64,000 nucleotides of DNA from assembly GCA_000002435.2 (NCBI GenBank), contig CM018793.1. One strand, given 5' to 3'. The notes below the pieces were generated by a model, which saw nothing but the letters and a program-made list of their open reading frames with translations, was not told the origin of the DNA and ran no database searches. Position numbers and translations under genes: made by a program. This document shows, in pieces, positions 19,865 to 54,720 of the stretch. Within the stretch, counting starts at the first letter, position 1. Every line of letters starts with the position of its first letter. Origin of the DNA: Giardia intestinalis (taxonomy: Eukaryota).

Positions 19865-20877
19865 AACAAATAGAGTTTTTACTGCTCACTTTATCTTACT
19901 TCGTTAATGATATTTACATGAAAAAGATCTATGGAAGTTTTGGATTGTATATATCATAGAATAGATTTATGGTTTGCTTGTGCTTATAACAGAGTGTATT
20001 TATCATGTAAAATACCTTCTATGCTTACAACCTTCTTGATTCTTCGTGAGTATTGCATTTAGGACTTTGTCTTCAAAACCTCCAATCGCCCTATATAGTG
20101 AATTGTGTGGTGAAGGCATCAAGCTGTGGTTTTTTCTGCTAACCGATCTGAATCCACCCTCTAGTTGATATAACGTTCTTCTGATGCATGTGCAATAGGC
20201 TTATCCAATGAAGGGGCGGCTTCCAAGCTCACTGGCGGGATATACCTACGCTAGTACACATTGTAGGCTACGCCAATGGAGCAGAGCTACGACTCCGTCT
20301 GAACGGCCGCACATCCCGCTGTGCACCCCTGGATTAGCACTCGTAGCTACACATACTGAACAGAACATCCCCGCCAGCTCGCCTGTTCTGCTGATACTGT
20401 CAGGATCACCGATTCCTCCAACGTCCCAGTAAGCCGGCCATCCGATACCGGCCAGGAAGCACAGATACATAGGACATCGGAGGATGCTCGAAATCTCCCG
20501 CTCTGGAATGGCTGTCGTCCTCCCCCTCTGGGTCTCTATTATAGTTGTACTAGTAGCCCACTGGCGTCCAACTCAATAATCACACACTCATCAAGCTAGT
20601 AACATCCAGAACAAGCCCTCTATAGACTCCTGCTAGTGTAACTGCCACGTGGTTGGAAGCGCACTACTAGAGGCTAGCCATTTACTATAGGGCTACTTTG
20701 TAAGGATGGCCACTATCTCCTTGAGAGCTGGAACAGGTGGAAGGCATCTTTAGAGGGCCTGCTTCTCTTAGGGACGGTGGTCCCGTGCACCGACTCACCT
20801 TGCGGTCAGAGAGACCATACTGGGACAGTTTGCCTGTGTGGCTCTAGGTCAGACCCACAAACAGAATTCGTCGACGC

Positions 20878-20884
20878 ATTTACT
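20878..20884 (-). promoter_or_regulatory. Giardia polyadenylation signal AGTAAAT, 9 nt downstream of the VSP stop
   Basis: Minus-strand reading gives ...TGC AGA GGC AAG GCG TAG atAGTAAATgcg. This matches the AGTRAAY consensus described for Giardia 3' ends and its typical position just after VSP stops. Confidence 0.7.
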
Positions 20885-20892
20885 ATCTAAGT

Positions 20893-23097: not shown

Positions 23098-23559
23098 TGC
23101 CCGATTGATAGATTGGTAGGAACATACTCGCGGTACATCAGTCAATCCGCGTCGATTGATGCAGTTGATTGATCCTTCTGGCACACGTTGACCACAGGCG
23201 CTGATGGAATCAACACTCACCGGGTCTATCGCGAACACTACTTGCAATCTGCAATCTCGGCACAGGGCCAGAAGGAGGTGGATTGAGCCGAACAGAACTG
23301 CGGCTGTCTCAATGTGTATGTCATACTAATGCACCTCGTGGCTCCGTTGCAATCTGTACGGACCATCCAGTGCGAGCCAAAGCTGCCACACGTGCACTGG
23401 GACAGTACTGCCCAGTAGCGGTCCAGAGCTTTCAATGGCTCCATCAACGGCCCACTGACAACTGCAAGGGCGACCCCCGCAGCTCTGCATAACGTGCATC
23501 CAAGGCCCGAGAGGCAGTGCACAGCAACGAGCGTCTCTCAGATGCGCCAGGAGCCCGTC

Positions 23560-24500
23560 CCAAGGAGTGTTCAGCCCCGATACCGCTTGGTGTGGCTGTG
23601 CTGCGTCTCATAAGGCACCTTCTGCAGCAGAACTAGGATCCATAACTGCGTTCTCCATTTGAAAAGTCAAAGGGAGCAGGAGCGCCCGCCACGAGGAGCC
23701 GGCCCCCGGGACGGCTGGGGCGGCACGCCTGTCTGCGGACCCATCCCGGGCTGCTGCGGCGCGCTCCAGGCGCATGGGCACAGCAGCAGCCCAGGGCGTT
23801 CCACCGGTTGCCGCTGCCGAGTCGATGGTCCGGTGGTCTCCCGGCGCCACCGCACCAGCAGGAGGCCGAGCACTGGCCCCCGTCCTCGGCTCTGTCCGCG
23901 GGCCGCTCGCATTGGAGCAGGGGCAGGGCCAGAAATGTTTTGTCCCTCGGGGCCCGCCTCTGGGGCGCCGCTGCCAGGTGGAGCCTGTCTGGGACGCGTC
24001 GTAGCGTGTGATTCTGTTAACACTACACCCAGAAAAGCGTTGACTGCATCTGGCGCATTTCCGGCAGACCTCTTCTGCGCCTGGTGCTGCTCGATGGGAC
24101 GACGGGGGCGCTCATAGCCCTCCGGTGGGCGGATGGGATTACGCCTGCCTAGTTCTCTGTCCTCTGAGCACAGCAAGAAGCGGACGATCGGGCTTTCCGG
24201 TGGAGCCATGAAGCGCCGCTGACGGGTAGGATGCACCCCAACACCGGCAGATGCATTGAGGGTCTCTTCTGCTGCCCTGGTCGAGGAAGATGTCATCCCC
24301 GGAAAGCGACGATTTACTTCGACAGCCAGCTATTTCTAGCGCTCTAGTACTGAGCCCCCTGCAGCCGCGGCCCAAGGGTTGCGCAAGTAAACCCACCTCC
24401 CCGCTCTTGTGTGAAGACGGGGACGAGCCAAGCCCGGCTCTCCCACTGCAGCAAGCTCTGGTGACTGGTAGTCCTTCCTCTCCCCAGTCTGTCTGAGCTA
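23560..24500. other. GC-rich (~65-75% by eye) apparently non-coding island within the VSP-HCMP divergent spacer
   Basis: Runs such as ccgcccgccacgaggagccggcccccgggacggctggggcggcacgcc. Overlapping low-complexity P/R/G/A-rich ORFs occur on both strands (23659..24117 +, 23667..24296 -), which is typical of GC-rich non-coding DNA. No Cys-repeat or other protein signature. Confidence 0.5.
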
Positions 24501-25090
24501 TTCGACAAGAATCAAGAGTGTCGGCTGGACGAGACCCATAGAGGCACTCAGTCTAGCTTTAGGACCCGTCTAATTAGCTAAATATAGTGTCTGTCTCCTG
24601 ATGTTGCGTAGACAGGGTATAAATTGAAAACTTTCCATCACCTAATGGAGTCTTCGAGCCGTTTCTCCAACTCGGAACGGAAGAGGCCATCCGCTCTGTG
24701 GTCCTTGATGCATATCTTGAACACGATCAAAAATAAGCAGGTTTCCCACGCGAGTTTTGGACCACGTCCACAAAGGGTTCAATATTACGGCAACACTTGT
24801 GAACAACAAAGCACCAGAGACAGCTTGCCAGAATAGTCAACACCTCACTACTTATCTGAAAGCTTTTCTACAATAATCAACATAAACAACTGCCATGTAC
24901 TTTCATCAGACCTGATTTACACAATATGCATTAGACACCACGAGCGATGGGATATTGCTCAAGCAACGGAAGTCAGGTAACGCAGCCCTTTGCAATAGGC
25001 ACCTGTATTGTAGTTTGCTCCTGTATATTATATAGTAAGTTTGTTGATATTTAAAGAGTTACCAAGACTGTTCAACTATTCGATAGCTAA

Positions 25091-40516: not shown

Positions 40517-40921
40517 ATGGGAAATCCACGCATCGCAGCAGAGCAGTATCTCAAGAAGTACAACATCCCAGACCTTTTTGACTATCTCCTTTCCCAGATA
40601 GTCATCAACCTGCCGGAGGATCCATGGACCCATCTGTCCGAGATATGCGAAAAGCTTGACAGCCGCTCTTTCCAAGACAACATTCCCTTCTTCACGCGGG
40701 ACGAGATCAATATTGTATTCAGCAATTATGAGGTCTTAAACAGGGGTTACATCACAGGCGCCCAGGCAAAGCAGGCACTGAAGACAATGGGCCTTAAGCC
40801 GCGAATAGTAGATGATTTATTCATTGACGACGACGCCAATCTCTCTCGAGAGGAGTTCAGTCAGTATGCCGTCAACGGATTCAACAAGAGGTTGAACTCG
40901 TGGCTGGGGAAGTACCCATGA
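40517..40921 (+). CDS. Small protein (134 aa) with an RIIa/DPY-30-like N-terminal docking motif and an acidic EF-hand-like loop
   Basis: ATG start preceded by an AT-rich initiator (aaaaaatttaaaaaataaag...). AEQYLKKYNIPDLFDYLLSQIVINLPEDPWTHLSE resembles the RIIa dimerisation/docking helix pair (IP..L.E.L......P.D). DDLFIDDDANLSREEF is an acidic, non-canonical EF-like loop. Confidence 0.45.
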   Translation: MGNPRIAAEQYLKKYNIPDLFDYLLSQIVINLPEDPWTHLSEICEKLDSRSFQDNIPFFTRDEINIVFSNYEVLNRGYITGAQAKQALKTMGLKPRIVDDLFIDDDANLSREEFSQYAVNGFNKRLNSWLGKYP

Positions 40922-42711: not shown

Positions 42712-43422
42712 TTAAGCGAGGACCACCTTGATCGAGGTCTGGACTGTTGGCACATCGATAACGGTGAGAGTTTCGTGCAGGGCGACTGTCTGTGGAAAGG
42801 AGATGCGCGAGAGACTCGACACAAGGTGTGGGTATTGGGTTTTGGTGTACTGTGTGCTTATGTGAAGTTCTTTGAGGACGTCAGTGAGCAGAGGAAGGAC
42901 CTGAGTGCATGCCCTCTTGCTTCCAAACCACACCTCTATCGTGCAGAACTCCTTCTCTAGCTTCAAGCAGCAGCCGTTGATTCCAAGCTTGGTCTTGTCT
43001 GTGGAGGCCGAGGAGTGCTCCAAAGCTCCAGTCAAAAGCAGTGTGCAGATAAAATTCCAGAGAGAATCTAGATCCGTGGGATCGACAATTGGATGTAACT
43101 TGTTAGACGCTTGATAGACCGCCTGGACTGCTTGCACCGATAGGCAACAGCGAAACCTGACGATCGATCCGCCGGCATTCATGGGATCTTCCCACAGGCA
43201 CTCTATTTGGTCTCTGAACAGTGAAATATGACCCTGCCTCAACTTTGAAATGGACGGAATGCTGTGCAAGGAAGATATAATTTCATCTAGATCAGTTGAA
43301 TCCACGCAAATCCTGCTATTCTGCTGGCTGAACGGTATCGGCAGGCTGTGCTTGGAGTAGAAACGCAAGGGCACCCAAAAGGCAACGCTCCACGAGGAGA
43401 GTAGCTCTCCCGTTGCCCCCAT
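42712..43422 (-). CDS. eIF4E-like mRNA cap-binding protein (~237 aa from first ATG)
   Basis: The track start at 43491 is GTG; the first ATG at 43422 gives MGATGELLSSWSVAFWVPL... SLFRDQIECLWEDPMNAGGSIVRF parallels the eIF4E block SLFKDGIEPMWEDEKNKRGGRW. DSLWNFICTLLLTGALE parallels DRFWLETLLCLIGE. GCCLKLEKEFCTIEVWF parallels GAVVNVRAKGDKIAIWT. The conserved Trp scaffold is present. Confidence 0.55.
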   Translation of the reverse strand: MGATGELLSSWSVAFWVPLRFYSKHSLPIPFSQQNSRICVDSTDLDEIISSLHSIPSISKLRQGHISLFRDQIECLWEDPMNAGGSIVRFRCCLSVQAVQAVYQASNKLHPIVDPTDLDSLWNFICTLLLTGALEHSSASTDKTKLGINGCCLKLEKEFCTIEVWFGSKRACTQVLPLLTDVLKELHISTQYTKTQYPHLVSSLSRISFPQTVALHETLTVIDVPTVQTSIKVVLA

Positions 43423-43463
43423 TTTTTGACCCACTCGTTTTAAAACAAAAAGGCAACACGGAT

Positions 43464-43970
43464 TCAAGGCTGCTTTGGCACATCGAGCCACTGCGCAATT
43501 TTGTCACAGCCTTGGCCGTCCAGCCCACAAAACATAAAAACCTCTTGGACGCGGTCTTTGTCCAGTTGTAAAGTGGTCCTGTAATAATCGGCCTTTTGCG
43601 ACACCCCAGGCTGGTCTATTTTCGTTACTACCACTGCAAAACGGGAAGCACGCATGTCCGTGTGCCCCAATATGTCCTTTATCAGATCCCGCGCTTGATC
43701 GAGCGGGCTTGTCCCGTCGACCACAAAGAGGCACGTTTGCGTGCCTGAGTAGTGCTCACTCCACAGCTGCATCATCTCAGCCGAGCCACCCACGTCTATA
43801 ACTTCATATCTATTGTATTTCTCTGCAGTGAAGTTGATTGTGGGATTGACAACAGTAAACGAGTTGGTTTTTAGGTAATTGATCAGGGTGGATTTCCCAG
43901 AGAACTGCCGGCCCAGAATCAATAACTTGGCTGTTTTATGGCGAGCGGGTCTGGAGCTGGCTGCACCCAT
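43464..43970 (-). CDS. ARF-like small GTPase (ARL)
   Basis: ATG start with MGAASS (N-myristoylation-type Gly2). Motifs present are G1 LGRQFSGKST, switch-I Thr in TINFTAEKY, DVGGSAEMMQLWSEHY (DxxGQ/WxxY-like), a TKID box (variant of NKxD) and C-terminal FCGLDGQGCDKIAQWL (SAxxGxGLxEGLxWL-like). Confidence 0.8.
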   Translation of the reverse strand: MGAASSRPARHKTAKLLILGRQFSGKSTLINYLKTNSFTVVNPTINFTAEKYNRYEVIDVGGSAEMMQLWSEHYSGTQTCLFVVDGTSPLDQARDLIKDILGHTDMRASRFAVVVTKIDQPGVSQKADYYRTTLQLDKDRVQEVFMFCGLDGQGCDKIAQWLDVPKQP

Positions 43971-44104: not shown

Positions 44105-47100
44105 TCAGATCTTACCGTAAGTGGACCTTCTGCTCGGTGTAAGAGCGGTCCCAGCCCCGGAGCTGGGAGCCCTGTAGTTCAGTGCTTCTGCAGCCTTCGG
44201 TAAGTCAACTAGCATGAGCTTGTCCATCAACTCCTTCTGCCTTTCCAACTCGGTCATAACTATGGTTTTCTGTTGCGAGAGGGTGCTCATTGTTTGAGAT
44301 GCATCCAGCATGGATTTGCTGAGCCTTGTCGTCATGTTCTCTGCCTGATTGCGTAGATCGTTAATTTCTTGCTCATATCTAACATTCTCGGCTATTATAT
44401 CATCCATGGCAGACATCTGCTTGTTCAGAGCCAATATATCTTTCTTGAGAGCATCGTTTTCTGCCTTAAGTAAAAGAAATTCTTTGGTTGATGTGATTAG
44501 GCTACTGAATTTTGAATAGAGCATAGAGTGCTCCCTCTCTATACCCTCTGGATTATCTGCCGTCACTTCTATCTCCTGTATTAGTGCTCTCAGTGCATCA
44601 CGCTCCTCAATGAGAGAGGTTATGTCTACATAGGTCTTCTTAAGAGATGCCAGTTTCCGTTTCAGTATTGTTACCTCCTCGATCAGGCAAGGATCGTCCT
44701 TATGACCCAGAAACTGTGCCAATTGGTCTTCAAGATACTGTCGTTCGAGAACAGCAGCGGCTACTTCCGGGTTAGCTTGTCTTGCCTCCTCAAGTGAGCT
44801 GGAGAGTGAGGCTATCTGCCGGTCCAGAAGTGTCGGATTGGTGGAAAAATCCCGAAACTCTTGTAAGTCCTGAGACAGTTCGGCTCTGTGCTTAATTCTG
44901 GCGCTCAGGGACGTGTTGCTGTCACGAGCAGTTGCTAGCTGTACTTCCAGTGTCTCTATTTCATTTTGGAGGCGACTCTCTTGGCCTATTTGGCTCTTGA
45001 ATTCCTTTAATTCCTTTCTCAACGATAAAGCCTTATCGATCATGGTGCTAAGGTTATAGTTACTGGACTTAAACGCCTCCAATATGTTGTGCAAATTATC
45101 AATCCTGGTTTGTAGCGCCTTTGTGTTTCTCTCAGTTCCTTCTGCGCTCTCTGCTGCCATCTGGCAGTCCTCACAGAGGATGGTGAGGTCTTCTATGTCA
45201 AGAAGGCAGTTATGTATTTCTGGATAAGACTCTCGTAATTCAAGAAGGTTGTTTTGTATGACTTCGCGGCGAGTTTCTAGCTCATCTAGGGCTCCTGGCC
45301 TGAGATAATTGTCTATCTCGGCGTGCAAGTCCTTTATGTCCTGGTTCAATGCAGTTATCGCGTGATCATCCTGCTGCAGTTGTTGAAGCTGCAGTTGAAG
45401 ATGTGCCTTCTTGGCCTCTAATTGGTCAAGGACGACTTTTGGATCCTCGATGCGCTCATATTGCTTTAGTGACATTCCCAGCTCGTCGCAGTCCTTTATT
45501 AACTGGTGTAGCTGTGGATTGGCCTTCATTAGCGCATCGAAACGAAGCTGCAGATCACTCTTCTTTGTCTCGAGCAGCTCAGTATTGAGCCTCCCTTCAT
45601 GGATGTCACCAACCAACGTCTCTAGGTACTTATTTTCCTCTATGATGCTGAAAATGGAAGGATGCTTCTGTTTGAGAGCAGACAGTTGATCTACCAAGTT
45701 GGCATTTTCACGCACTATGGCAGAAGGCTGTTTAATGGCATTTGTTAAGCTATTAAGCTCTACCGTGGTTACTTCTATGCGGTTAATAAGCTCGGCTAGC
45801 TGGGGATTAGACTTCCGGAGCGTCTCCACTTCTGTTTCCAGACTCCTCTGACGGGCCTCGAGACGGCTCGGGTTATCTTTGTATGTCTTCATCTCTTCTA
45901 ATATCAGTTTGAGGTGCTCTACCTCGTTGACAAGGTGAGTGATGCCTTTTTCGCTCTTTATAGTGAAAAGCTCGGTCTGGAGTTGCGAGATATCATCAGA
46001 CAACGTCTTTTCATTGATCTCTCCGGATTTAAAGGCATTAATGAGACCTCTGAGCCGGTCTTGTTCGTCAAGTAGTAGCGAAACAGCAGAATTAGTATTT
46101 CTTAGAACGCGTGCCTCATTGCTTAACGATGTAATGACATTGCGTAACTCTGTTGTATCCAGAGAGTAGCGCTGAAGTTCAACAATCTCACGCTCTAGTT
46201 GGGCTTTCTCAGCTAAAAGTGCACCAACGGGTGACTTCTTTGCAGTATCATCTAGCGCTTTCAGTTGAGCCTTCAGTTGGGCAATTTGTTCCACGAGGCA
46301 TTCTGACTTGACAGAGTTATCTTTAGCTAATTGCGTGCTGGCTTCCAGCTTCTGCTGAAGAGAGTCAATCTCTGCAAGACGCTCAAACACATGGCTGTGC
46401 GCACTGTGCAATTCAGCAATCTCGTGCTCAATCTCTACTTTTTTCTGAGCAAGCTGGTCAGGACTATTAATATAGTTTTTGTATTGGCTCACTTCCTGCT
46501 GCATGCCCTCAACAGACTGCAGCAGCTGAAGAACATCCGGGGAGCCACGCTTCAAATCCTCCAAGGCATTGATTAGCTCACGATTTTGCTGCTCTAGCCG
46601 TGGCCTAGATTGAATAGCTATCTCTAGTGTTTGCATCTTCTCCTTCAGGCGTTCATTTTCAGCCAAAAGGGAATCTATGTCTGGGTTAAGTGTCTTCAGT
46701 TCTGCAATCTTATCTAGCAATACCTGCTTGCTTTCCTCCAAACGTCCTCTATCATCAATGCTCGCGTGGAACTCATTGATTTGCTGCAGCAAGCACAGCT
46801 TATCTTGTATGATGGATTCGATATCTGGAAAGTCGAGCTGCAATGCCGCCAGATTCTCTTGTAGCTTGTAATTATCTTCTTGCAAAGCTTCAGGATCTAT
46901 ATTTCCTTCTTTAATATCCATTATTTGGGTGCGGAGTGCGTTGTTTTCGTCCAGGAGCCTCAGAGTATTTCCGTGGGCTTCTTTCAACGCTGCTAGATTT
47001 TCCTGCAGCTGGATATAGTCCGCCTCAATTGTGAGCTTATTGCGCACTGCTGTCTCTACTGCTGCTTGCTCTTCACGGATCTTCTCCAAACCGGTTATCA

Positions 47101-49063
47101 TAGATAGAATCTCCGCACTACTCTCCTTTATTGAAGCCAGCTCTTCTTGAGACTTAACTAGCTCCCCTAGAAGTGTAGAAGGAGACTCAGCGTATAGCTT
47201 AAGCGACTTGATCTCGTTCTGAATGATGCCACGCTTTTCTAGAAGCTCCACTACTCCCGGTGAGTTTGTGCGGAGATCGTTTAGCTCCTGTTCTAGATTA
47301 CAAATCTCTGTGGCAAGAGCGGTGCTGCTGGTTGCAAGTCCATTGAGCTCCATGATCTCGTCTTGCAGAGCTGCTCTCTGCTTAGTAAGTTTCTCCACCT
47401 CTGGGTTATTGCGTTTAAGCTCTTCTTTCAGCCCGCGCATAGCCTCCACTTCGTTGTAAATTGTCTTTATATTGGCCAATGAATCTCCGAAGTTCTTGAT
47501 ATCCTGAGCCAGCTTGTTCTTATCTGCCAAAAGCCCAACGATATCTGGGTTCCCTTCTACTAGCATTGTTAGCTCTCCTCTCAATACCTCTAGTTCTTGC
47601 TCCAAGCTTTGCTTGTTATTTATGTACTCCTTAAACTCTAAGATCTCGTCATGTGTTCGCTTATAGATGTCAACGAGAAGTTTCACATCCGGAGAGGATG
47701 TCTTCAGCATTCCTAGCGTCTCCTTTTCCTGATTAAGCTTGTCAGCAAATCCAGCATTGTTGTCGAGTGCCTGCTGATAGAGGTCCACAATAGATCTGCA
47801 CTCCACATGCTCTCTAACCAGGAGGGAAATCTCTGGGTTGTTCTTTTCAAGTTCTGTAAGCTTCTGCTTCAGGCTTGTACATTCAAAAAGAGCACTTTCT
47901 AGAGTGCTGGTAGAGATGCGTTGTATCATGGAGCGCAGGTCTTCTGCCTTCTTAAGGGTCTCTGCGACATCCGGGTGGTTGGCCGCCATTTCCTGGTATT
48001 GCTTGCGAAGCAACGCATTCTCATTTAACCCATTTGTGGGAAACTGCACCATCTGCCGCAACTCTTCGATGTTCGATAGTAGCTGCTTTCTCTCTGTATA
48101 CCCTTGCATGACTGCCGGGTTGCTTTCGAGTATGGAGTCTATGCTCTGCTGGAGCATGCTTATATTATCAGTTAAACTAACAGGATTAATAATATAATTG
48201 TCCAACAGGCTTTTCTCTGCTTTGAGTTCCATGATTTTGTCAATATACACCGATGCAGTTTGATGTTTCGCGCGCTTAAGCTCAATGGTCGCTTGAAGTG
48301 CAGAGATCTGGTGCGATAGTTGGCTCAGGTCTTCCCCTGTATCCTCGGATGGCGCTGGACCATTACGAACAGGATGCTCAATTAAGGAATATAGATTAAG
48401 CTCGTGTTCTGCGTCTAAATAATCCTGTACCAAGGCCAGTGAATCCGCACTCATCGCTTTTCGAGTCTCCTCAATCTGCTTCCTCAGCAGCTCTGCCTCT
48501 GGGAGCATGACATGGCTTCCACTTGAAGCTGCCTGGATAGCTCGTGTAAGTACTTCAAGCTCCTTTTCAAGCTCTAATTTTTCAGATGTACATTTTTGAA
48601 TGGTCGGGTTTGTGCCCAAATCTGCCACCCGTGTCCGTAGCTCTTCGACTGTGCGGGAAAGAGAGCTCAACTCGGCAAGCTGATCCTGCAATTTAGTGCA
48701 TTCTTCTTTGAGAGCTTCCCTACTTCCTGATTGTTGTTCAATGGCTTCAATACTGGCAAGAAGGTCCTGTCGTGTGACAGATAACGTGGCACGCCCAGAG
48801 AGATCTTGGCAGGACGCAAGAATTGCACCATAAAGAGACTCCACCCGGCCATCGAGTTGCTGACGATACGTCTCCGAGAGCCTCTGTACCTGGAGCTGAA
48901 GCTCAGCACCAAGATTCTTCACGACTTCCTCCGGAAAAAGCCCTGCACCGCCCAAAAGCGCCAAGACATATGTGCTAAAGATATCCATTGTGCCGCTCAC
49001 AGCACCGTTCACTTCCTCGACCAGGGCACTCAGCTGCTCCAGTGGCACGGGATTCAAGGACAT
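44105..49063 (-). CDS. Very long coiled-coil protein (~1,650 aa) with a recurring L..L(R/K)..NP(D/E)(I/V)..LL module
   Basis: The track start at 49084 is TTG; the first ATG is at 49063 (MSLNPVPLEQ...). It is heptad-rich E/L/K/Q throughout. At least 12 copies of the module occur, e.g. KNNPEISLLV, SSPDVKLLV, GNPDIVGLL, NNPEVEKLT, NSPGVVELL, NPDIDSLL, GSPDVLQLL, SNPQLAELI, ANPQLHQLI, ANPEVAAAV. Confidence 0.8.
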   Translation of the reverse strand: MSLNPVPLEQLSALVEEVNGAVSGTMDIFSTYVLALLGGAGLFPEEVVKNLGAELQLQVQRLSETYRQQLDGRVESLYGAILASCQDLSGRATLSVTRQDLLASIEAIEQQSGSREALKEECTKLQDQLAELSSLSRTVEELRTRVADLGTNPTIQKCTSEKLELEKELEVLTRAIQAASSGSHVMLPEAELLRKQIEETRKAMSADSLALVQDYLDAEHELNLYSLIEHPVRNGPAPSEDTGEDLSQLSHQISALQATIELKRAKHQTASVYIDKIMELKAEKSLLDNYIINPVSLTDNISMLQQSIDSILESNPAVMQGYTERKQLLSNIEELRQMVQFPTNGLNENALLRKQYQEMAANHPDVAETLKKAEDLRSMIQRISTSTLESALFECTSLKQKLTELEKNNPEISLLVREHVECRSIVDLYQQALDNNAGFADKLNQEKETLGMLKTSSPDVKLLVDIYKRTHDEILEFKEYINNKQSLEQELEVLRGELTMLVEGNPDIVGLLADKNKLAQDIKNFGDSLANIKTIYNEVEAMRGLKEELKRNNPEVEKLTKQRAALQDEIMELNGLATSSTALATEICNLEQELNDLRTNSPGVVELLEKRGIIQNEIKSLKLYAESPSTLLGELVKSQEELASIKESSAEILSMITGLEKIREEQAAVETAVRNKLTIEADYIQLQENLAALKEAHGNTLRLLDENNALRTQIMDIKEGNIDPEALQEDNYKLQENLAALQLDFPDIESIIQDKLCLLQQINEFHASIDDRGRLEESKQVLLDKIAELKTLNPDIDSLLAENERLKEKMQTLEIAIQSRPRLEQQNRELINALEDLKRGSPDVLQLLQSVEGMQQEVSQYKNYINSPDQLAQKKVEIEHEIAELHSAHSHVFERLAEIDSLQQKLEASTQLAKDNSVKSECLVEQIAQLKAQLKALDDTAKKSPVGALLAEKAQLEREIVELQRYSLDTTELRNVITSLSNEARVLRNTNSAVSLLLDEQDRLRGLINAFKSGEINEKTLSDDISQLQTELFTIKSEKGITHLVNEVEHLKLILEEMKTYKDNPSRLEARQRSLETEVETLRKSNPQLAELINRIEVTTVELNSLTNAIKQPSAIVRENANLVDQLSALKQKHPSIFSIIEENKYLETLVGDIHEGRLNTELLETKKSDLQLRFDALMKANPQLHQLIKDCDELGMSLKQYERIEDPKVVLDQLEAKKAHLQLQLQQLQQDDHAITALNQDIKDLHAEIDNYLRPGALDELETRREVIQNNLLELRESYPEIHNCLLDIEDLTILCEDCQMAAESAEGTERNTKALQTRIDNLHNILEAFKSSNYNLSTMIDKALSLRKELKEFKSQIGQESRLQNEIETLEVQLATARDSNTSLSARIKHRAELSQDLQEFRDFSTNPTLLDRQIASLSSSLEEARQANPEVAAAVLERQYLEDQLAQFLGHKDDPCLIEEVTILKRKLASLKKTYVDITSLIEERDALRALIQEIEVTADNPEGIEREHSMLYSKFSSLITSTKEFLLLKAENDALKKDILALNKQMSAMDDIIAENVRYEQEINDLRNQAENMTTRLSKSMLDASQTMSTLSQQKTIVMTELERQKELMDKLMLVDLPKAAEALNYRAPSSGAGTALTPSRRSTYGKI

Positions 49064-49157
49064 TGCCTGTATAGTATTAGTCAAAAATTATTACAAGTAG
49101 TTGCAAAAATTATGGCAAATGCTAAATTCCGAATTTTGAGACACCTCTAAATTAAAA
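49064..49157. promoter_or_regulatory. AT-rich bidirectional promoter region between the two coiled-coil genes; classic Giardia initiator aaattaaaaATG at 49149-49160
   Basis: This 94-bp spacer (…caaaaattattacaagtagttgcaaaaattatggcaaatgctaaattccgaattttgag…acctctaaattaaaaATGtcc) is flanked by divergent ATGs. Confidence 0.55.
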
Positions 49158-51731
49158 ATGTCCGAGGCTATGGTTTTCAGCAAGATCGACGAGTACACGC
49201 TCTTTATGAGCCGGTCTCTCCAGAAATCGCTCAAAACATTTGCTGAGCAGGTCATGGCCCTAATTTATCAGTATAAAGATACGCTTGTCGAGGATAGGCT
49301 TGCTCTCACCAACACCCTCGACGAGGCGGTTCAGATTCTTGTCGACAGTGGCAAGGAGGAGGCGGATAAGCTTGGATTTAATATATACTCTGCGGTGAGT
49401 AGGTATATCAGCGAGATCTGGGCCTCTCAGTCTGGTCAGACAACGGCGGCCCCGCCAGCGACGGATATCGACGGGCTCCACAGGCAGCTTGTTGCTCTCA
49501 AGAATAGCCTTGGCCAAAATGCTGAGCTCTATGAGCAGAGGTGCCAACTTCAGGCGGAGTTGCGCGAACTTCAGGAATTTTCGGAGAACCCCGCGGCAGC
49601 AGTCGAGGAAATTATGCAGCTGAAGGCCCAGATAGATGAGCTCAAGTACGGGGCCTCGAACCACAACGCCCTTGTCCAGGAGAAGAGGGATCTTGAGCGC
49701 CATCTTGCAGACCTGCGCCTCAGTAGACAAGACACTAACTCACGCCTCCCCCAGGAGATCGACAGACTTCGCGCTGAGATCGAGGACGAGAAGCGCAATC
49801 TGCCGCATATGGACGATCTGCAAAGGCAGCGCGACGAGCTCCAGAGGCAGCTAGACACAATCAGGCGCCGGGGCAACACGTCGGGTGTCATGGCCGAGAT
49901 TGAGAACATACAGAGGCAGATAGACGATGCCAACTCCTCTGCGTCGAGCGAGCATGAGCTTCGAATGCTCCGTGCCGAAGTTGAGACTCTCCGTGCCCAG
50001 AAGTCCATCGTCACCCGTCTTGAGGCGGAGAATGCGGATCTGCGCCGAGAGCTACAGGACATTCGTGGCCGTGCTCAGGAAATGAGCGCTAGCCAGCGCT
50101 ACAGCGCCAATCAGGCGCAGGAGCTGCAGGAGAAGGCGATGCAGGCAGAGGAGCTTCTGCAGCAGAAGATTGAGCTTAGGCGCCAGCTTCATGAGGCTCT
50201 AGAGCGAGCAGATGCAGGTGAGGCTGCTCTTCGTGACAAGAGGCGACTTGAAGATGAGATAAAGGGCCTTCAGTTGCGTCTTACCGAAAACGACTTTACG
50301 AAGGAGCGCTCTATCCTCCGGAACGAGATCCAGGCTAAGACTACCGAGATAGACACACTTATCAGTGACCGTCGCGCTCTGGAGACCAAGCTCCTCAATA
50401 AAGAGGCAGAAGTGGATCAGCTTCTTTATGAAAAGCAACTTCTCAAGACAGAGCTGAACTCCTATCGCGGAACAAACGAGGATATAGACAAGCTTACCTT
50501 TGAGAAACGCCAGCTTGTTGAGGAGCTAAACGACCTGCGTGAGAAGACTATCAAATACGACCAATTGGCTCGTGAGAAGGCGGCGCTCGAGACTGAACTC
50601 AAGGAAAACTCGTACAACTTTGACCAGTTGCTTGAACAAAAGCAACAGATGCGTAGCGATCTCAATGCCCTTCGCGAAAAGGCAGCCGACTACGAGCGCG
50701 TCGATCGCGAGCTTCGCCTCAAGGACAAGGAGCTCGAGGAGAAGAATGCTGAGATCGAGAGGCTTCTTGAGGACCGCCGCGTCATGCGTACCGAGCTCCT
50801 CCACTCTAAGGAGTCTGCGACCGATGTTGACAGTTTGATACAAGAGAAGAGGCTGCGTGACCGAGAGCTTGCCCACCTTCGTGACCGCATGAGCGAGTAT
50901 GAGCGTGTGGTAGAAGAGAGGATCCAAAAGGAGAAAGAAAATAACCTTCTTAAGCAGCGTATCACGGAATTGGAGCAGCAGCAGCGCACCGCGACAGTCC
51001 GCGAGACCGAGATGAGTGCCCTCCGTGAGAAGGCTAACGAGTTAGATGGCTACAACCGTGAGCGCCAGGCAAGAGAGCATGAGATCAACATGTTGCGTGA
51101 CAAGGCCTTGGAGTCCGACAAGCTTCGCCAGGATAACAGGGTGATGGCGATGGAATTGACAGAGCTTCGCGAGAAGGTGCAACTTCTCGAGAAACTCCAA
51201 TACGAGAAGAGAGCACGAGACGTAGAGATGCTCGAGTTGCGCCACAAAGCCATGGACGTTGACACTCTTGTTGAGGAGAAGCAACGCCTTGAAATGCGTC
51301 TTGCAGAGCTCAAGATCAAGGTCAATAATTATGATCAGCTGGCAGACGACAAGGCTCGTCTGCAGGAGCAACTGAAAGAAATGTCAGACAAGCTGATAGA
51401 GTTCGAGATGATCATGGATGACAACCGAAGGCTTAAGCTTCAGGTTAAGGAGCTCGACCTTAAGACTGCAAACATGGAGAAGCTTTATGAGGAGTACAAG
51501 AAGCTCGAAGACCAGCTGAAGGCAACGAAGGCGATGACCTCTACAGGCATGGGTGTGTCGGCTGCCTCTCCGGCATTTTACAAGACGAAGAGTATGCGCC
51601 TTACACAACAAAACAACCAGATGAAAAACACAACAGACAACCTCCTAACGCGCGACATTCCCAAGTTGATCGACAAGCTTATTGAGCGCCCTGCGGGGAC
51701 TACAACCATGGGCCGAAGTGGTAAGTTCTGA
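49158..51731 (+). CDS. Coiled-coil protein (857 aa) with ~20-24-residue periodic repeats and strongly GC3-biased codons
   Basis: ATG start. The sequence is almost entirely heptad E/L/R/K/Q. Recurring units are L(N/A)xLREKxxxY(D/E)(Q/R)(L/V), e.g. LNDLREKTIKYDQL, LNALREKAADYERV, LAHLRDRMSEYERV, LTELREKVQLLEKL. Codons are dominated by gag, ctc, cgc and aag, unlike the neighbouring genes. Confidence 0.8.
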   Translation: MSEAMVFSKIDEYTLFMSRSLQKSLKTFAEQVMALIYQYKDTLVEDRLALTNTLDEAVQILVDSGKEEADKLGFNIYSAVSRYISEIWASQSGQTTAAPPATDIDGLHRQLVALKNSLGQNAELYEQRCQLQAELRELQEFSENPAAAVEEIMQLKAQIDELKYGASNHNALVQEKRDLERHLADLRLSRQDTNSRLPQEIDRLRAEIEDEKRNLPHMDDLQRQRDELQRQLDTIRRRGNTSGVMAEIENIQRQIDDANSSASSEHELRMLRAEVETLRAQKSIVTRLEAENADLRRELQDIRGRAQEMSASQRYSANQAQELQEKAMQAEELLQQKIELRRQLHEALERADAGEAALRDKRRLEDEIKGLQLRLTENDFTKERSILRNEIQAKTTEIDTLISDRRALETKLLNKEAEVDQLLYEKQLLKTELNSYRGTNEDIDKLTFEKRQLVEELNDLREKTIKYDQLAREKAALETELKENSYNFDQLLEQKQQMRSDLNALREKAADYERVDRELRLKDKELEEKNAEIERLLEDRRVMRTELLHSKESATDVDSLIQEKRLRDRELAHLRDRMSEYERVVEERIQKEKENNLLKQRITELEQQQRTATVRETEMSALREKANELDGYNRERQAREHEINMLRDKALESDKLRQDNRVMAMELTELREKVQLLEKLQYEKRARDVEMLELRHKAMDVDTLVEEKQRLEMRLAELKIKVNNYDQLADDKARLQEQLKEMSDKLIEFEMIMDDNRRLKLQVKELDLKTANMEKLYEEYKKLEDQLKATKAMTSTGMGVSAASPAFYKTKSMRLTQQNNQMKNTTDNLLTRDIPKLIDKLIERPAGTTTMGRSGKF

Positions 51732-51753: not shown

Positions 51754-54720
51754 TCATAAGTAGCCTGTGTTAGAAAAGTTAGCAATTTTGTCGTACATGT
51801 ATGGTTTGCAAAAGTTCATCTTTATATGTGGTCGTGACTTCTGTGATATGAGATCGCAGTAGGAGACGATGGCCGGACGTATCCTGTAAACATGCTTAGA
51901 TCGTGCTATGGAATCCAATCTTTTCATTAGCTTTTCGTCGATAGATTGCTGGAGTTGCTGCTTGCGTAAGATATCGCCTGCGTTGAAGGCCAGTGAGAGG
52001 TCTAGAATAGCTGTAGTGGTTTCTGTGATAATGTCTAATGGTTCTTTCGCTCTGGAACCTAGTAGATGAAATGAATCAATCTCTACGCCACTTGTTGCAG
52101 TCGAGGGTTGCTTTCCTTGCGTGCTGTTGCTCTCATAAGATAGGTATTTGCTGGAACGGGGATTAAGGGACAATGGCTCTAAGACGGACTGTCCATTCTT
52201 GTAAAAGCGTATTGTCTCGGTTGCCATATCCACTATGGCGCCTACCACATCGTTGGATCCCAAGAATAGTCCACTGAATCTCCTTTGACCACGCTCAAAG
52301 ATAAATCCATCTGTAGTTATAAAAGCTCCATTGATAGCCGGAGAGTCGCATCCGTGGAATAGCTGCTCTTCATACATTACCCCCAATGCTAGATTTGTAG
52401 CACTGGGGAGGTTCTTGAGGATAAACTCGAAGTACACCTTAGCGAATTTGGAAGATGATAAGATGTACTTATTACATTTGATCGTGACATAGTGCCTAGG
52501 AGTCTTTAGTTCAATATGGAGCCCGCTCACATCAAGATCATAGAGGTCCATATGCTTAAGCATGCAGACGGTTCCATCCAGGATCTGATATTGTTTCACT
52601 AGCTTCCGGCTCTCAAGCACCTCTGTGAGAAGATCTTGGAACGGTTCCGTCCCTGAGGTAAGAGCCATTTTGATTGCATCCTCACTCCACTGTTTGTACA
52701 TTTCACGCATGGCAGCTCTTCTACTACGCATCTCCTCTATAAGGTATTCAAACGGCACTATCTCTACTCGTGTACGTTTAGGGCATTGCTTGGTCCCACA
52801 GGGGTCTCGAGGATGATCACAGGGATGCTCCTGGGCCTCCTCTGATGGGTGGGAGAAAGGATTGGGGGCACTATATATTGTAGCGCTTGTCTCTGATAGC
52901 TCATTATTGGGATTGTTGGTAGTATTAAGCTGATGGAACGAGGAGAACTCCTGGACAGATGGAATGACGACATGCTCCAGGTCCTTTAGGGTTTCGTCAT
53001 CAATGTGAACAGAACTACTATCAATTAATGGAAATAGTTGCTCCTTTAACTCCTGATTTTCCCCTGTTAATAGATTGATCTGTAACGTGACTCCTTGCTT
53101 GTCTTGCAACACGAGATTGTACTTATCTCCATCTAATCCTGACTGTCCTGTGCTCTCCTCATCTCCTGTGAAGGGCGCACGGGATTGTCTTATGGCCGCA
53201 GAAAAGCCTAGGTTAATAAGCTCTTTATTTGCACAGTCCTTCATAAGAATGCACCCGTACGCCCTGATATGCATGAAAAGAAGACCCAAGTCCTTTGTAG
53301 AGACGCGTCGAAGAATCTCTCGATAGATATCTTCTGATACAAGCTTGCAACTGGTCAGTGCTGGTGATGTATATATCTCTGGTGAGACAATATGGCGTGC
53401 AATTAGGACCGTGACAGCATCTATGAATGTGTCCGACTCCAGAGAAATGGCCATTATGAGCAGTTGCGGTAGCTGAGCTATAGGCTTAAAGATCATTTCC
53501 TCTAGCATCTTTAGATCTGCCAGTCTGCGACTCGTTCCCGCTGTCTCCTGAGTTAGCGCAAAGAACGCCTGAAGGTGGTCCCTGTACTCTGTTTCGAGCG
53601 CATCATAGTACTGCAAAGCATCCACTTGGTGATCCACATACACACTATCAATCTGCTTGGCTCCATTTTTCAGCAGCCCCTCATATTTCAACTGCACCTC
53701 CTTCACTGCTTCTATGAAGCTCGCGGTCACCTCATCACAGAGTCGCTTCTCTGCGTATGCCTTCCAGCTTTTGAGACAGTTAAGCCTTTCCTCCCTACGT
53801 ATGTCGATCAGCATATTGAATTCGTTGGTTATTTCAGTTGCATATGTTTCAGCCAGAGAAATGGCAGATGATATCAGTCGCTGCTCACTTATAACAGTGG
53901 GGTGGCGGCAAAAGAGAAGAAAGCGTGCAAAGCCATCGGGATATAAGTGAGGATGAGATCTGTGTGTTTCGCAGGAGGCCATATGGGGGAAGCTTCTGTC
54001 CACTAGCTCTATGGCAGCATCCTCTTCAATAGTCGCAAAGCAGCCCTGAGACTCTCCATAGATGGCGGGGGGAAGGTCACGTGTCTTTTGTGCGTAAAGC
54101 CGTGACATGAGATTGGACTGCCTGGTAAGAGCGCATCTTCGAGTAACAAAGGAAATAAACTTCTGGCCTTTCAAGTTTGTGTAGAGTAGGGAGTCTGAGA
54201 TATGAGATAGAACAGGGGAGCTTGCCTTTAGTTCCTCTGGTGGCACATGCAGAGGAAACTGAACAATTAGCTTCTCTTTTCCGTAGTTTGAGGTTTCTCG
54301 TTGGAAGATCAGTTTCTCCTGAGTGTCTGTCTGGGGAGGAAAGGCCAGCAAGGACCGATCCTTGAGAAGTATGCTCTCCGGATCCTTAAGTATGGCATCT
54401 CTCTCCTCTTGTAGTGTAAGCTCTCTGGAGATAAGGGAAACTAAGGGTGCATATAAAGGAGAATTAATGAGTGTATCTAGGCGCAGAAGAAGCGCTTTAC
54501 TGTACAAGTTGTACCTCTCTGGTTTGGGAAATTTGCCGGGCGCCTTTTCTCTCGCTTTTGCATAAAGATAACAGAGTGCATCATTGATCCCATCCTCTGT
54601 CGTACTTTCATAGTTATTGGCCCAGTACGCCGAGAGGAGGAGCTTGTCTTCCGAAAACGAAAACTCAGTAATGGCAAGGGGCATCGGCCACTCCACGACA
54701 GGGGACGCGGGATAGCCCAT
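51754..54720 (-). CDS. Large protein (988 aa) with a C-terminal SPRY (B30.2-like) domain
   Basis: ATG start (MGYPASPVVEWPMPLAITEF...). The C-terminal ~130 aa reads KVYFEFILKNLPSATNLALGVMYEE...AINGAFITTDGFIFERGQRRFSGLFLGSNDVVGAIVDMATETIRFYKNGQSV. This matches the SPRY consensus (YFEV.I......IG......; GDVIGC..D...GTLSF.KNG). Confidence 0.6.
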   Translation of the reverse strand: MGYPASPVVEWPMPLAITEFSFSEDKLLLSAYWANNYESTTEDGINDALCYLYAKAREKAPGKFPKPERYNLYSKALLLRLDTLINSPLYAPLVSLISRELTLQEERDAILKDPESILLKDRSLLAFPPQTDTQEKLIFQRETSNYGKEKLIVQFPLHVPPEELKASSPVLSHISDSLLYTNLKGQKFISFVTRRCALTRQSNLMSRLYAQKTRDLPPAIYGESQGCFATIEEDAAIELVDRSFPHMASCETHRSHPHLYPDGFARFLLFCRHPTVISEQRLISSAISLAETYATEITNEFNMLIDIRREERLNCLKSWKAYAEKRLCDEVTASFIEAVKEVQLKYEGLLKNGAKQIDSVYVDHQVDALQYYDALETEYRDHLQAFFALTQETAGTSRRLADLKMLEEMIFKPIAQLPQLLIMAISLESDTFIDAVTVLIARHIVSPEIYTSPALTSCKLVSEDIYREILRRVSTKDLGLLFMHIRAYGCILMKDCANKELINLGFSAAIRQSRAPFTGDEESTGQSGLDGDKYNLVLQDKQGVTLQINLLTGENQELKEQLFPLIDSSSVHIDDETLKDLEHVVIPSVQEFSSFHQLNTTNNPNNELSETSATIYSAPNPFSHPSEEAQEHPCDHPRDPCGTKQCPKRTRVEIVPFEYLIEEMRSRRAAMREMYKQWSEDAIKMALTSGTEPFQDLLTEVLESRKLVKQYQILDGTVCMLKHMDLYDLDVSGLHIELKTPRHYVTIKCNKYILSSSKFAKVYFEFILKNLPSATNLALGVMYEEQLFHGCDSPAINGAFITTDGFIFERGQRRFSGLFLGSNDVVGAIVDMATETIRFYKNGQSVLEPLSLNPRSSKYLSYESNSTQGKQPSTATSGVEIDSFHLLGSRAKEPLDIITETTTAILDLSLAFNAGDILRKQQLQQSIDEKLMKRLDSIARSKHVYRIRPAIVSYCDLISQKSRPHIKMNFCKPYMYDKIANFSNTGYL

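Follow-up and report, generated by a model that had tools for sequence, protein, structure and literature searches.

The divergent pair of long genes described here, within a stretch of 64,000 nucleotides (the window), belongs, on the best explanation, to chromosome 5 of Giardia intestinalis WB and is the MBP / DAP16342 locus already known there, an assignment to which we give a probability of about 90%. The plus-strand gene, encoding 857 residues, is that of the median body protein, MBP (GL50803_16343), and the minus-strand gene, encoding 1,652 residues, is that of the disc-associated protein DAP16342 (GL50803_16342). Both genes are already known, the locus as such is ordinary and finding MBP again adds nothing new. 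Comparison of the two proteins, in addition, points to a likely common origin: we consider it probable that MBP and DAP16342 are ancient paralogs.

Results

Identity and layout of the locus

Our identification of MBP rests on agreement in coordinate offset, length and mass, in the identity of its neighbour and in the match to six published primers. The window matches G. intestinalis WB scaffold CH991767 with an offset of exactly 1,200,000, and the published position of MBP (CH991767:1249158-1251731, plus strand, 2,574 bp) is equal to window positions 49158-51731 plus that offset, with the same length. The calculated mass of the 857-residue protein, 100.6 kDa, agrees with the published 857 aa and 101 kDa; Table 1 of an earlier study gives these values for GL50803_16343, which is listed there without a conserved domain (PMC3243723). 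Two knockout-screening primers match the window exactly, MBPLeftF at 48272-48291 on the plus strand and MBPRightR at 50193-50212 on the minus strand, with codon 95 of MBP between them, and all four RT-qPCR primers for GL50803_16343 (two pairs) lie inside the 857-residue reading frame, within 49755-51018. For the neighbour, an exact-sequence look-up over all 1,652 residues returned XP_001707410 / A8BES0 / GL50803_16342, a protein with a calculated mass of 186.4 kDa and pI of 4.8. The initial annotation had held that identity could not be established from sequence alone; coordinates, primers and look-up have now supplied it for both genes.

The features of the locus are collected in Table 1. The minus-strand open reading frame (44105..49084) opens with TTG, and its first ATG, at 49063, gives the 1,652-residue product. 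The arrangement first recognized, two long genes diverging from an AT-rich spacer of 94 bp, was confirmed to the base pair, and the spacer (27.7% GC) stands out against 1-kb bins across the window that mostly have a GC fraction of 0.43-0.50.

Table 1. Features of the MBP / DAP16342 locus (window coordinates).
Feature	Position	Strand	Evidence and remarks
DAP16342 (GL50803_16342) CDS and stop codon	44105..49063	-	ORF, ATG at 49063; 1,652 aa, proline-segmented helical rod
MBP (GL50803_16343) CDS	49158..51731	+	ORF; 857 aa, 100.6 kDa
Divergent intergenic spacer, AT-rich	49064..49157	.	94 bp, 27.7% GC; putatively both short core promoters, back to back
Conserved 33 nt directly upstream of the MBP ATG (GAATTTTGAGACACCTCTAAATTAAAA...)	49125..49157	+	31/33 positions invariant in three lineages; putative MBP initiator / core promoter
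DAP16342, eleven gapless 48-residue units, residues 402-929	46277..47860	-	lag 48 z = 15.7; proline lattice
MBP, about 16 24-residue units, residues 409-792	50382..51533	+	lag 24 z = 12.0
DAP16342 residues 1356-1625, the part most like MBP residues 89-357	44189..44998	-	BLASTP, phmmer
MBP residues 89-357, the part most like the DAP16342 C-terminal rod	49422..50228	+	BLASTP, phmmer, library search

Repeat architecture

Repeat periodicity was assessed by BLOSUM62 autocorrelation against 200 shuffles, and the repeats of both proteins are real and far above chance. For MBP the scores are z = 12.0 at lag 24, 8.5 at lag 48 and 4.9 at lag 7, and for DAP16342 they are z = 15.7 at lag 48, 9.5 at lag 24 and 8.2 at lag 7. 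The period is exactly 24 residues in MBP, where repeats had been proposed correctly, and 48, or 2 x 24, in DAP16342. In MBP, weaker units begin at about residue 121 and precede the clearly visible array; the unit consensus is approximately E-L-[RK]-[ED]-K-[AV]-x-[DE]-[VLY]-[DE]-x-L-x-x-E-[KRN]-x-x-[LM]-x-x-x-[LM]-x. In DAP16342, 17 units match a unit HMM at i-E <= 0.01. The eleven gapless copies have a consensus close to L-x-x-L-K-x-x-[NS]-P-[DE]-[IV]-x-x-L-L ... [FLY] ... P ... L ... L, and prolines fall on a 48-residue lattice (410, 458, 506, 554, 602 and onward). The L..LR..NP(D/E)(I/V)..LL module first described in this protein is half of the 48-residue repeat. It stands as a degenerate module but not as a literal pattern: the expression L..LR..NP[DE][IV]..LL has no exact match in DAP16342, and a relaxed form has nine.

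Both proteins show the heptad (a/d) hydrophobic periodicity of alpha-helical coiled-coil rods. Windows whose heptad pattern exceeds the 99th percentile of shuffles make up 72% of DAP16342 and 55% of MBP, so that the original description of the pair as almost purely coiled-coil was roughly right. DAP16342 is segmented by about 40 prolines, and their regular placement argues against one continuous supercoil; AlphaFold2, run on residues 390-940 as a monomer, predicts an almost entirely helical structure, at low confidence (mean pLDDT 60, pTM 0.28). At the DNA level, TRF found no 72- or 144-bp tandem arrays, and the repeats are old and, with the exception of a few short matches at spacings of 144, 288 or 432 bp, can be seen only in the proteins. 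The accessible papers on MBP assign it 'three coiled-coil domains' and report that homologs are lacking outside Giardia. They mention neither a strict 24-residue period nor a link to GL50803_16342, and the 1993 sequence paper (Marshall & Holberton, J Mol Biol) may already describe the periodicity.

Similarity between the two rods

A phmmer search with MBP against 1.84 billion representative proteins gave only three matches at E <= 1e-3: two fragments of MBP itself and one ortholog of DAP16342 (P0016; E = 2e-10, in 8 stretches, the best at residues 1310-1629). At the same threshold no generic coiled-coil protein was significant. Within the WB pair, BLASTP aligned MBP with DAP16342 over 278 residues with 5% gaps (44.3 bits, E = 5e-8), phmmer gave 35.2 bits (best domain 28.7 bits; E = 5.7e-4 at library size) and hhalign gave a probability of 90.6% over 380 columns (E = 1.3e-6). 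The aligned stretches stay collinear for about 270 residues; they have few gaps and 21-26% identity and share an LQEF..(S/T)NP motif. On these comparisons the rods have a specific sequence relationship that is significant library-wide.

Profile methods over-call similarity among coiled coils, and the unit HMMs were scored against shuffles in which the order of hydrophobic and polar positions was kept. With null2 correction off, MBP obtains 101.9 bits from the DAP16342 unit HMM, and the best of 300 such shuffles obtains 37. The reciprocal comparison is weaker, as the 24-column MBP-unit HMM scores 18.7 bits on DAP16342, a tie with the best shuffle, and finds no match with null2 on. The best phase of the two unit profiles superposes L-K..P-D-[IV]..L-L..E-[NK], by a modest margin (0.41, against 0.27 for heptad-shifted phases). 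Outside the rods, the N-terminal domains show no similarity (z = 0.3), and a C-terminal 'D[IL]PK' similarity is marginal (z = 3.2; 4/500 shuffles).

Full-length MBP gave no matches in a word-indexed search for homologs. The exact MBP sequence is absent from that collection, and a full HMMER scan found just two MBP fragments; the lack of matches from G. muris or other diplomonads consequently says little about the real phylogenetic distribution of the protein.

Conservation in two further lineages

The divergent pair is kept at the corresponding loci of two divergent Giardia lineages (L001 and L002; runs ERR3333380 and ERR3333381), with aligned spacers of about 95 bp. MBP is 94% and 93% identical in these lineages and DAP16342 71% and 67%; dN in MBP is about five- to six-fold below that in DAP16342, and dN/dS in MBP is about 0.02. 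The spacer retains 79-83% identity, whereas 61-78% of synonymous sites differ. This conservation is asymmetric, at 89-91% on the MBP side and 69-77% on the DAP16342 side, and the best conserved part is the 33 nt before the MBP ATG, with pairwise identities of 94-100%.

Codon usage and expression

GC3 is 0.649 in MBP and 0.501 in DAP16342, and the difference recurs in the three lineages (0.650 vs 0.501, 0.726 vs 0.458 and 0.541 vs 0.346). MBP exceeds its partner in its use of GAG (82% vs 59%), AAG (83% vs 68%), CGC (38% vs 24%) and CTC (29% vs 16%). The GC-ending preference reported for the 857-residue gene in the initial annotation is real, but the description of it as strong is not sustained: the bias is moderate, because ENC is 52.9 in MBP compared with 57.9 in DAP16342. 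The commonest leucine codon in MBP is still CTT (42%). The other 13 tabulated ATG-start reading frames in the window have GC3 values of 0.415-0.648, and certain small genes close by reach intermediate or equally high values (Arf-like, 0.586; IF4E-domain, eIF4E-like, 0.592; EF-hand, 0.644).

The premise that GC-ending codons track expression in Giardia is backed by a published codon-usage analysis, in which the optimal codons end in G or C, GC3 averages 51.67% across the genome and much of the variation in codon usage is ascribed to nucleotide composition (PMC8393687). In an expression table for WB, MBP stands at 233 FPKM, well below the values of more than 10,000 FPKM recorded there for ribosomal protein genes. 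GL50803_16342 is not among the rows of that table listed in decreasing order of WB FPKM down to 38.55.

Discussion

The likely history of the locus is an inverted local duplication that produced MBP and DAP16342, after which each gene may have grown by internal amplification of a common 24-residue unit. The competing view is that the two genes are unrelated neighbours, with a rod similarity that is compositional or convergent, the 24-residue spacing having arisen from binding to the same periodic disc lattice. We consider this unlikely, while recognizing that spurious profile matches are notoriously common among coiled coils, that the identity between the rods is low, that the WB pair taken by itself is marginal at library scale, that the N-termini have nothing in common and that the reciprocal signal, of the MBP-unit HMM on DAP16342, is unclear. 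These points have to be set against the specificity of the library search, in which the DAP16342 family was the sole significant non-self match among 1.84 billion representatives although coiled-coil proteins were included, and against the long collinear alignment with its shared motif, the failure of every pattern-preserving shuffle to reach the score of the DAP16342 unit HMM, and the adjacency of the genes in three lineages. Descent from a common ancestor is therefore the reading that we prefer, and DAP16342 is probably the sole detectable relative of MBP, built from the same 24-residue block.

Whatever their origin, the two genes appear to differ in output, and we propose that the G/C-ending codons and the very slow protein evolution of MBP reflect higher expression and translational selection. 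The GC3 contrast could instead stem from local mutational bias, biased gene conversion or amino-acid and repeat composition, with no expression-linked selection. The moderate size of the bias, the high GC1 of MBP (0.627) and the weight given to nucleotide composition in the published analysis (PMC8393687) would all fit such an origin; yet the switch occurs within 94 bp, recurs in three lineages whose background GC3 ranges from about 0.34 to 0.50, is present within amino-acid families (e.g. GAG/GAA, AAG/AAA, GAC/GAT and ATC/ATT) and coincides with the lower dN and published abundance of the protein, and we judge a non-selective origin to be quite improbable. The spacer poses a related question. 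It probably holds a pair of short, AT-rich core promoters of the Giardia type, arranged back to back, of which the one next to MBP is the more tightly constrained. Alternatively, one promoter that is bidirectional in the strict sense may co-regulate the two genes, with codon usage and mRNA stability setting their different outputs post-transcriptionally. In favour of the latter, bidirectionality is reported to be an inherent property of Giardia promoters (Teodorovic et al., 2007, PMC1885649), conservation extends over the whole of the short spacer, and both products are found at the same organelle. The asymmetric conservation, however, suggests separate elements under different constraint, and RNA levels appear to lie several-fold apart, as DAP16342 is not among the rows of at least 38.55 FPKM. 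A single shared promoter thus seems to us an unlikely arrangement. The conserved spacer and its near-invariant 33-nt block on the MBP side offer a compact test case for how tiny Giardia promoters can give very different outputs in each direction.

The suggestion, made from the reading frame, that the 857-residue gene encodes an abundant structural protein of the Giardia cytoskeleton was correct. MBP is a ventral disc protein, a helical rod specific to Giardia; it is abundant in disc proteomes and is found in the body, overlap zone and margin of the disc and, on occasion, in the median body (PMC3243723; PMC12367319). Its loss leads to flat, open discs that lack the overlap zone, to malformed microribbon-crossbridge complexes and to weak attachment (PMC3243723; PMC12367319), and in the knockout the disc no longer domes and the breakdown of the epithelial barrier in organoid-derived monolayers is delayed (PMC12367319). 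The importance of MBP for attachment to the host is therefore already established. For the larger neighbour, the co-localization that had been predicted, and the GFP tagging proposed as a check, are effectively in the literature with a positive result: a supplementary table lists DAP16342-GFP at 'ventral disc, median body' (PMC13322205, citing Nosala et al., 2020, PMID 32661087). In the inventory of disc-associated proteins it is entered as a 'hypothetical protein', and the role of scaffold partner proposed for it in the initial annotation is putative. A search of main texts in the accessible literature for DAP16342 or GL50803_16342 returned no functional or sequence analysis.

Both proteins may act as periodic helical rods or linkers within or between the repetitive microribbon-crossbridge lattice. 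A bolder proposal is that this ancient inverted-duplicate pair forms a two-member, Giardia-specific family of rods made of 24-residue units, which co-assemble in the ventral disc and together set the regular spacing of the microribbon-crossbridge lattice. MBP would then be the short, highly expressed and near-invariant member and DAP16342 the long, proline-kinked one with the 48-residue repeat. This is speculative and, in our view, improbable in its complete form, but were it true, loss of DAP16342 should phenocopy or enhance the MBP knockout. DAP16342 is a natural candidate for knockout and interaction studies, and possibly a source of partial redundancy with MBP, because it is probably the only detectable relative of that protein, has the 24-residue block in common with it and resides at the same organelle.

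Finally, the pair can be compared with other long helical proteins. No Pfam family matches MBP, and Pfam gives DAP16342 just a sub-threshold TMF_TATA_bd match (19.9 bits, cut-off 29.1), and sequence searches of the PDB returned no matches for either protein. A GASP-180-like (ankyrin) identity was rejected since the defining domains are absent. DAP16342 resembles SMC proteins in its long coiled-coil region and overall length, and one source names its ortholog ESU37882.1 (P0003) an SMC chromosome-segregation protein. As there is no P-loop (Walker A) motif and no SMC_N or hinge Pfam domain, this identity was rejected, and the label seems to derive from coiled-coil similarity, as an artefact of annotation. 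Identity with the SF-assemblin / giardin striated-fibre proteins was likewise rejected, as neither protein matches the SF-assemblin Pfam profile at E <= 0.01, and the library search showed no similarity. The likeness to SF-assemblin and beta-giardin is instead one of design: these, too, are structural proteins of the Giardia disc (microribbons) and segmented helical rods with a non-heptad super-repeat, although that repeat spans about 29 residues in SF-assemblin, as against 24 in MBP and 48 in DAP16342.

Identity and arrangement of the two genes

The 857-aa gene encodes median body protein (MBP; also DAP16343, GL50803_16343). Its coordinates as published for 'Median body protein GL50803_16343' (CH991767:1249158-1251731; Franzén et al., 2013, Supplementary Table S1) equal those of our ORF plus exactly 1,200,000, and thus the window corresponds to CH991767:1200001-1264000 (WB scaffold, chromosome 5). 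Furthermore, the screening primers for the MBP quadruple knockout matched the window exactly, at positions that fit the published design, which places them beyond homology arms of ~750 bp centred at MBP coding position 95 (PMC12367319). All four RT-qPCR primers for GL50803_16343 fell inside the ORF, and there is agreement in length (857 aa) and in mass, calculated here as 100.6 kDa and published as 101 kDa. The divergent neighbour, DAP16342 (GL50803_16342), is residue for residue XP_001707410 / A8BES0, annotated as hypothetical in G. intestinalis WB C6. One source names its ortholog P0003 (ESU37882.1) 'Chromosome segregation protein SMC'; P0003 has neither a P-loop nor a Pfam match to the SMC head or hinge, so the name is apparently an artefact of annotating coiled coils. 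An SMC identity for DAP16342 itself was ruled out, as head, hinge (Pfam) and P-loop are all missing, and SF-assemblin and ankyrin labels were rejected because neither of the two proteins contains such a domain.

The two long ORFs point away from each other, and the spacer between their ATGs is exactly 94 bp, with a GC of 27.7% in a window whose 1-kb bins mostly lie at 0.43-0.50; the initial annotation was correct in its coordinates, sizes and spacer length. At its 3' end, MBP converges on a SPRY-domain gene. The stops are 22 bp apart, and MBP 3' UTRs have been published at 24 and ~166 nt, so that these would extend into the 3' end of the opposite gene and the convergent transcripts would overlap. 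The tight gene packing of this genome is also illustrated by an Arf-like GTPase ORF that overlaps the downstream IF4E-domain (eIF4E-like) ORF by 28 nt; this overlap sits in the 5' extension of the IF4E ORF and is probably an ORF-calling artefact, because an ATG start makes that gene shorter. Elsewhere, a GC-rich island (1-kb bins up to 0.51-0.61, against ~46% for the window) holds several overlapping ORFs.

Coordinates of features in the window
Feature	Position	Strand	Detail
DAP16342 ORF	44105..49084	-	TTG-initiated; first ATG 49063, giving 1,652 aa
MBP ORF	49158..51731	+	857 aa
MBP stop	51729-51731	+	
SPRY-domain gene stop	51754-51756		988 aa, convergent
Spacer mini-ORF	49111-49149	+	12 codons, MANAKFRILRHL then stop
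C-terminal motif, MBP	~51636-51680	+	residues ~827-841, DNLLTRDIPKLIDKL
C-terminal motif, DAP16342	~44180-44224	-	residues ~1614-1628, DKLMLVDLPKAAEAL
Knockout screening primer	48272-48291	+	
Knockout screening primer	50193-50212	-	
Arf-like GTPase ORF	43464-43970	-	overlap at 43464-43491
IF4E-domain ORF	42712-43491		GTG start
EF-hand protein gene	40517-40921	+	134 aa
GC-rich island	20000-25000		
Island ORF	23667-24296		209 aa, 67% GC
Island ORF	20893-23247		784 aa, GC3 0.61

Repeat architecture

The repeats claimed for both proteins were borne out by BLOSUM62 autocorrelation against 200 residue shuffles. In DAP16342 a period of 48 dominates (z = 15.7), with a strong sub-period of 24 (z = 9.5) and the heptad period of 7 (z = 8.2), while in MBP the dominant period is 24 (z = 12.0), accompanied by 48 (z = 8.5) and 7 (z = 4.9). 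When set out in 48-residue rows, DAP16342 residues 402-929 form eleven fully gapless units with degenerate units on either side, and a profile HMM of the repeat unit detected 17 units at i-E <= 0.01. The motif L..LR..NP(D/E)(I/V)..LL, proposed as its recurring module, describes the first half of this unit fairly well as a consensus, but no stretch matches it literally. Prolines recur on the 48-residue lattice (410, 458, 506, 554, 602; 746, 794, 842; 1087, 1135, 1183, etc.), often followed by a second break ~22-26 residues further on. About sixteen 24-residue units occupy MBP residues 409-792, with weaker units from ~121; the 24-residue unit would carry seven core positions, as three heptads plus three residues, and five of the eight MBP prolines fall outside the repeat region (residues ~121-792). 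Heptad-patterned windows (> 99th percentile of shuffles) cover 72% of DAP16342 and 55% of MBP. An AlphaFold2 model of DAP16342 390-940 is nearly all helix, with 1-2-residue breaks at the proline sites, but of low confidence (mean pLDDT 60, pTM 0.28). No DNA-level tandem arrays underlying the protein repeats were found, and the repeats of both proteins are old. MBP may be a largely continuous helical rod, and DAP16342 a rod of twice that length, broken by proline every 24-48 residues.

Probable relationship between MBP and DAP16342

We consider it likely (probability about 0.75) that the two genes are paralogs, arising by an old inverted local duplication and then independent repeat amplification. 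The unusual 24/48-residue period common to both suggests a common building block, and several comparisons support this relationship. BLASTP with compositional adjustment aligned MBP 88-357 with DAP16342 1355-1625 (24% identity, 5% gaps, E = 5e-8 as a single comparison), the alignment including an LQEF..(S/T)NP motif present in both, and hhalign, run on the ortholog alignments of the two proteins (three sequences each), gave a probability of 90.6% (E = 1.3e-6, 380 columns). The DAP16342 48-residue unit HMM scored 20.4 bits on MBP after bias correction, against a maximum of 12.8 in 500 shuffles that kept the hydrophobic/polar pattern, and 101.9 bits against a shuffle maximum of 37 without the null2 correction. 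Among 48 cyclic phases of the unit profiles, the best superposes L-K..P-D-[IV]..L-L..E-[NK] of DAP16342 on L-R..x-D-[VLY]..L-x..E-[KRN] of MBP.

The main alternative is that the likeness reflects convergence on a common lattice spacing. In its favour, the two N-terminal domains show no relationship, and at the C-termini only a marginal D[IL]PK motif is common to both (local alignment z = 3.2; 4 of 500 shuffles score as high); this motif could serve targeting or interaction in both proteins. In the reverse direction, a 24-column HMM of MBP units scored 18.7 bits on DAP16342, equal to the best pattern-preserving shuffle. We regard a HMMER scan of MBP against 1.84 billion representative proteins as the most telling test of paralogy. 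Only three sequences reached E <= 1e-3, none of them a myosin, an SMC protein, a golgin or any other generic coiled coil; two are MBP fragments and the third, P0016, is the DAP16342 ortholog of another lineage, matched in eight stretches at 56.5 bits (E = 2e-10). Against paralogy, the WB pair itself reached no more than 35.2 bits, with E = 5.7e-4 at the size of the library. Full-length MBP was absent from two large protein collections, where only two fragments, P0018 and P0019, were present, both with apparently frameshifted tails (227 aa and 89 aa); homology negatives, such as the lack of a G. muris match, are thus a poor guide to where MBP really occurs.

Conservation, promoters and codon usage

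Homolog search recovered DAP16342 orthologs of 98%, 71% and 67% identity, the latter two on contigs from runs ERR3333380 and ERR3333381. Both divergent contigs carry the two orthologs head to head, with aligned spacers of ~95 bp. Identity to WB in these lineages is 94% and 93% for MBP but 71% and 67% for DAP16342; dN is five- to six-fold lower in MBP, with dN/dS ~0.02. Between lineages the spacer is 79-83% identical, while synonymous sites differ at 61-78%. The MBP-proximal half (89-91%) is more conserved than the DAP16342-proximal half (69-77%), and the last 33 nt 5' of the MBP ATG (…GAATTTTGAGACACCTCTAAATTAAAA) are 94-100% identical. Giardia promoters are short, AT-rich and reportedly intrinsically bidirectional (PMC1885649); from these traits we infer that the spacer holds two back-to-back core promoters, with tighter constraint on the MBP side. 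Upstream of the MBP start codon, the spacer also contains an ATG that opens a mini-ORF. Of the two divergent lineages aligned, that of ERR3333380 lacks this ATG and the other keeps it; it thus probably lies upstream of the transcription start and is without meaning.

The strong GC-ending codon bias claimed for MBP stood in kind but not in degree. GC3 is 0.649, against 0.501 in DAP16342, 0.490 in the convergent downstream gene and a genome mean of 51.67% (PMC8393687). The shares of GAG (82% versus 59%), AAG (83% versus 68%), CGC (38% versus 24%) and CTC (29% versus 16%) are all raised over DAP16342, and GAC, AAC and ATC are also favoured within their families. However, the bias is only moderate (ENC 52.9 versus 57.9), and CTT is still the commonest Leu codon. 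The GC3 contrast recurs in WB (0.650 versus 0.501) and in both divergent lineages (0.726 versus 0.458, 0.541 versus 0.346) despite a shifting background, which argues for a gene-specific rather than regional cause. Optimal codons in Giardia all end in G or C (PMC8393687). A published expression table gives MBP 233 FPKM in WB, and GL50803_16342 is not among its rows listed in order of falling WB FPKM down to 38.55; DAP16342 RNA is probably several-fold below that of MBP, or the gene lies outside that four-way ortholog table. The G/C-ending codons of MBP and its slow evolution are both plausibly explained by a combination of higher expression and structural constraint. An EF-hand protein gene in the window (sub-threshold Pfam EF_EFCAB10_C match) has a GC3 of 0.644, as high as MBP. 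Its identity in one lineage is 97.8% (dN/dS 0.005), compared with 70-80% for the genes around it there, and the protein is probably likewise subject to high expression and strong constraint.

Discussion

The gene identities, repeat architecture and conservation were observed here; that both proteins localize to the disc, and what loss of MBP function does, is established in the literature. MBP came to light as a disc protein and accounted for many mass spectra in the proteome of the disc; it lies along the whole disc spiral and only occasionally in the median body, and lacks recognised motifs as well as homologs beyond Giardia (PMC3243723). It stays disc-bound after 1 M KCl extraction (bioRxiv 10.1101/361105). 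In morpholino, CRISPRi and full quadruple-knockout mutants the discs are flattened and open ('crescent' or 'horseshoe'), without an overlap zone, and the microribbon-crossbridge complexes are malformed and irregularly spaced. Shear resistance of these mutants is poor and their breakdown of the barrier of organoid-derived monolayers slower, and an episomal copy under the native promoter rescues them (PMC12367319). DAP16342 is listed as 'ventral disc, median body' in a 2026 localization atlas table, citing Nosala et al. 2020 (PMC13322205); no main-text discussion of DAP16342 / GL50803_16342 was found in the searchable literature. The initial annotation was therefore right to expect an abundant disc or median-body structural protein beside a larger neighbour, and the tagging it proposed has already been published, with both proteins at the disc. 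Both MBP and DAP16342 probably serve as periodic linkers within the microribbon-crossbridge lattice.

In summary, both genes were already annotated and localized, and MBP is functionally well characterized. To this we add, incrementally, the exact repeat periods, the probable paralogy of the neighbours, and the conservation of both the spacer and the contrast in codon bias. DAP16342 as probably the only detectable relative of MBP offers disc biologists a testable lead, albeit one unsurprising to a specialist, and this question of paralogy is the sole point at which our analysis goes beyond the published accounts consulted.
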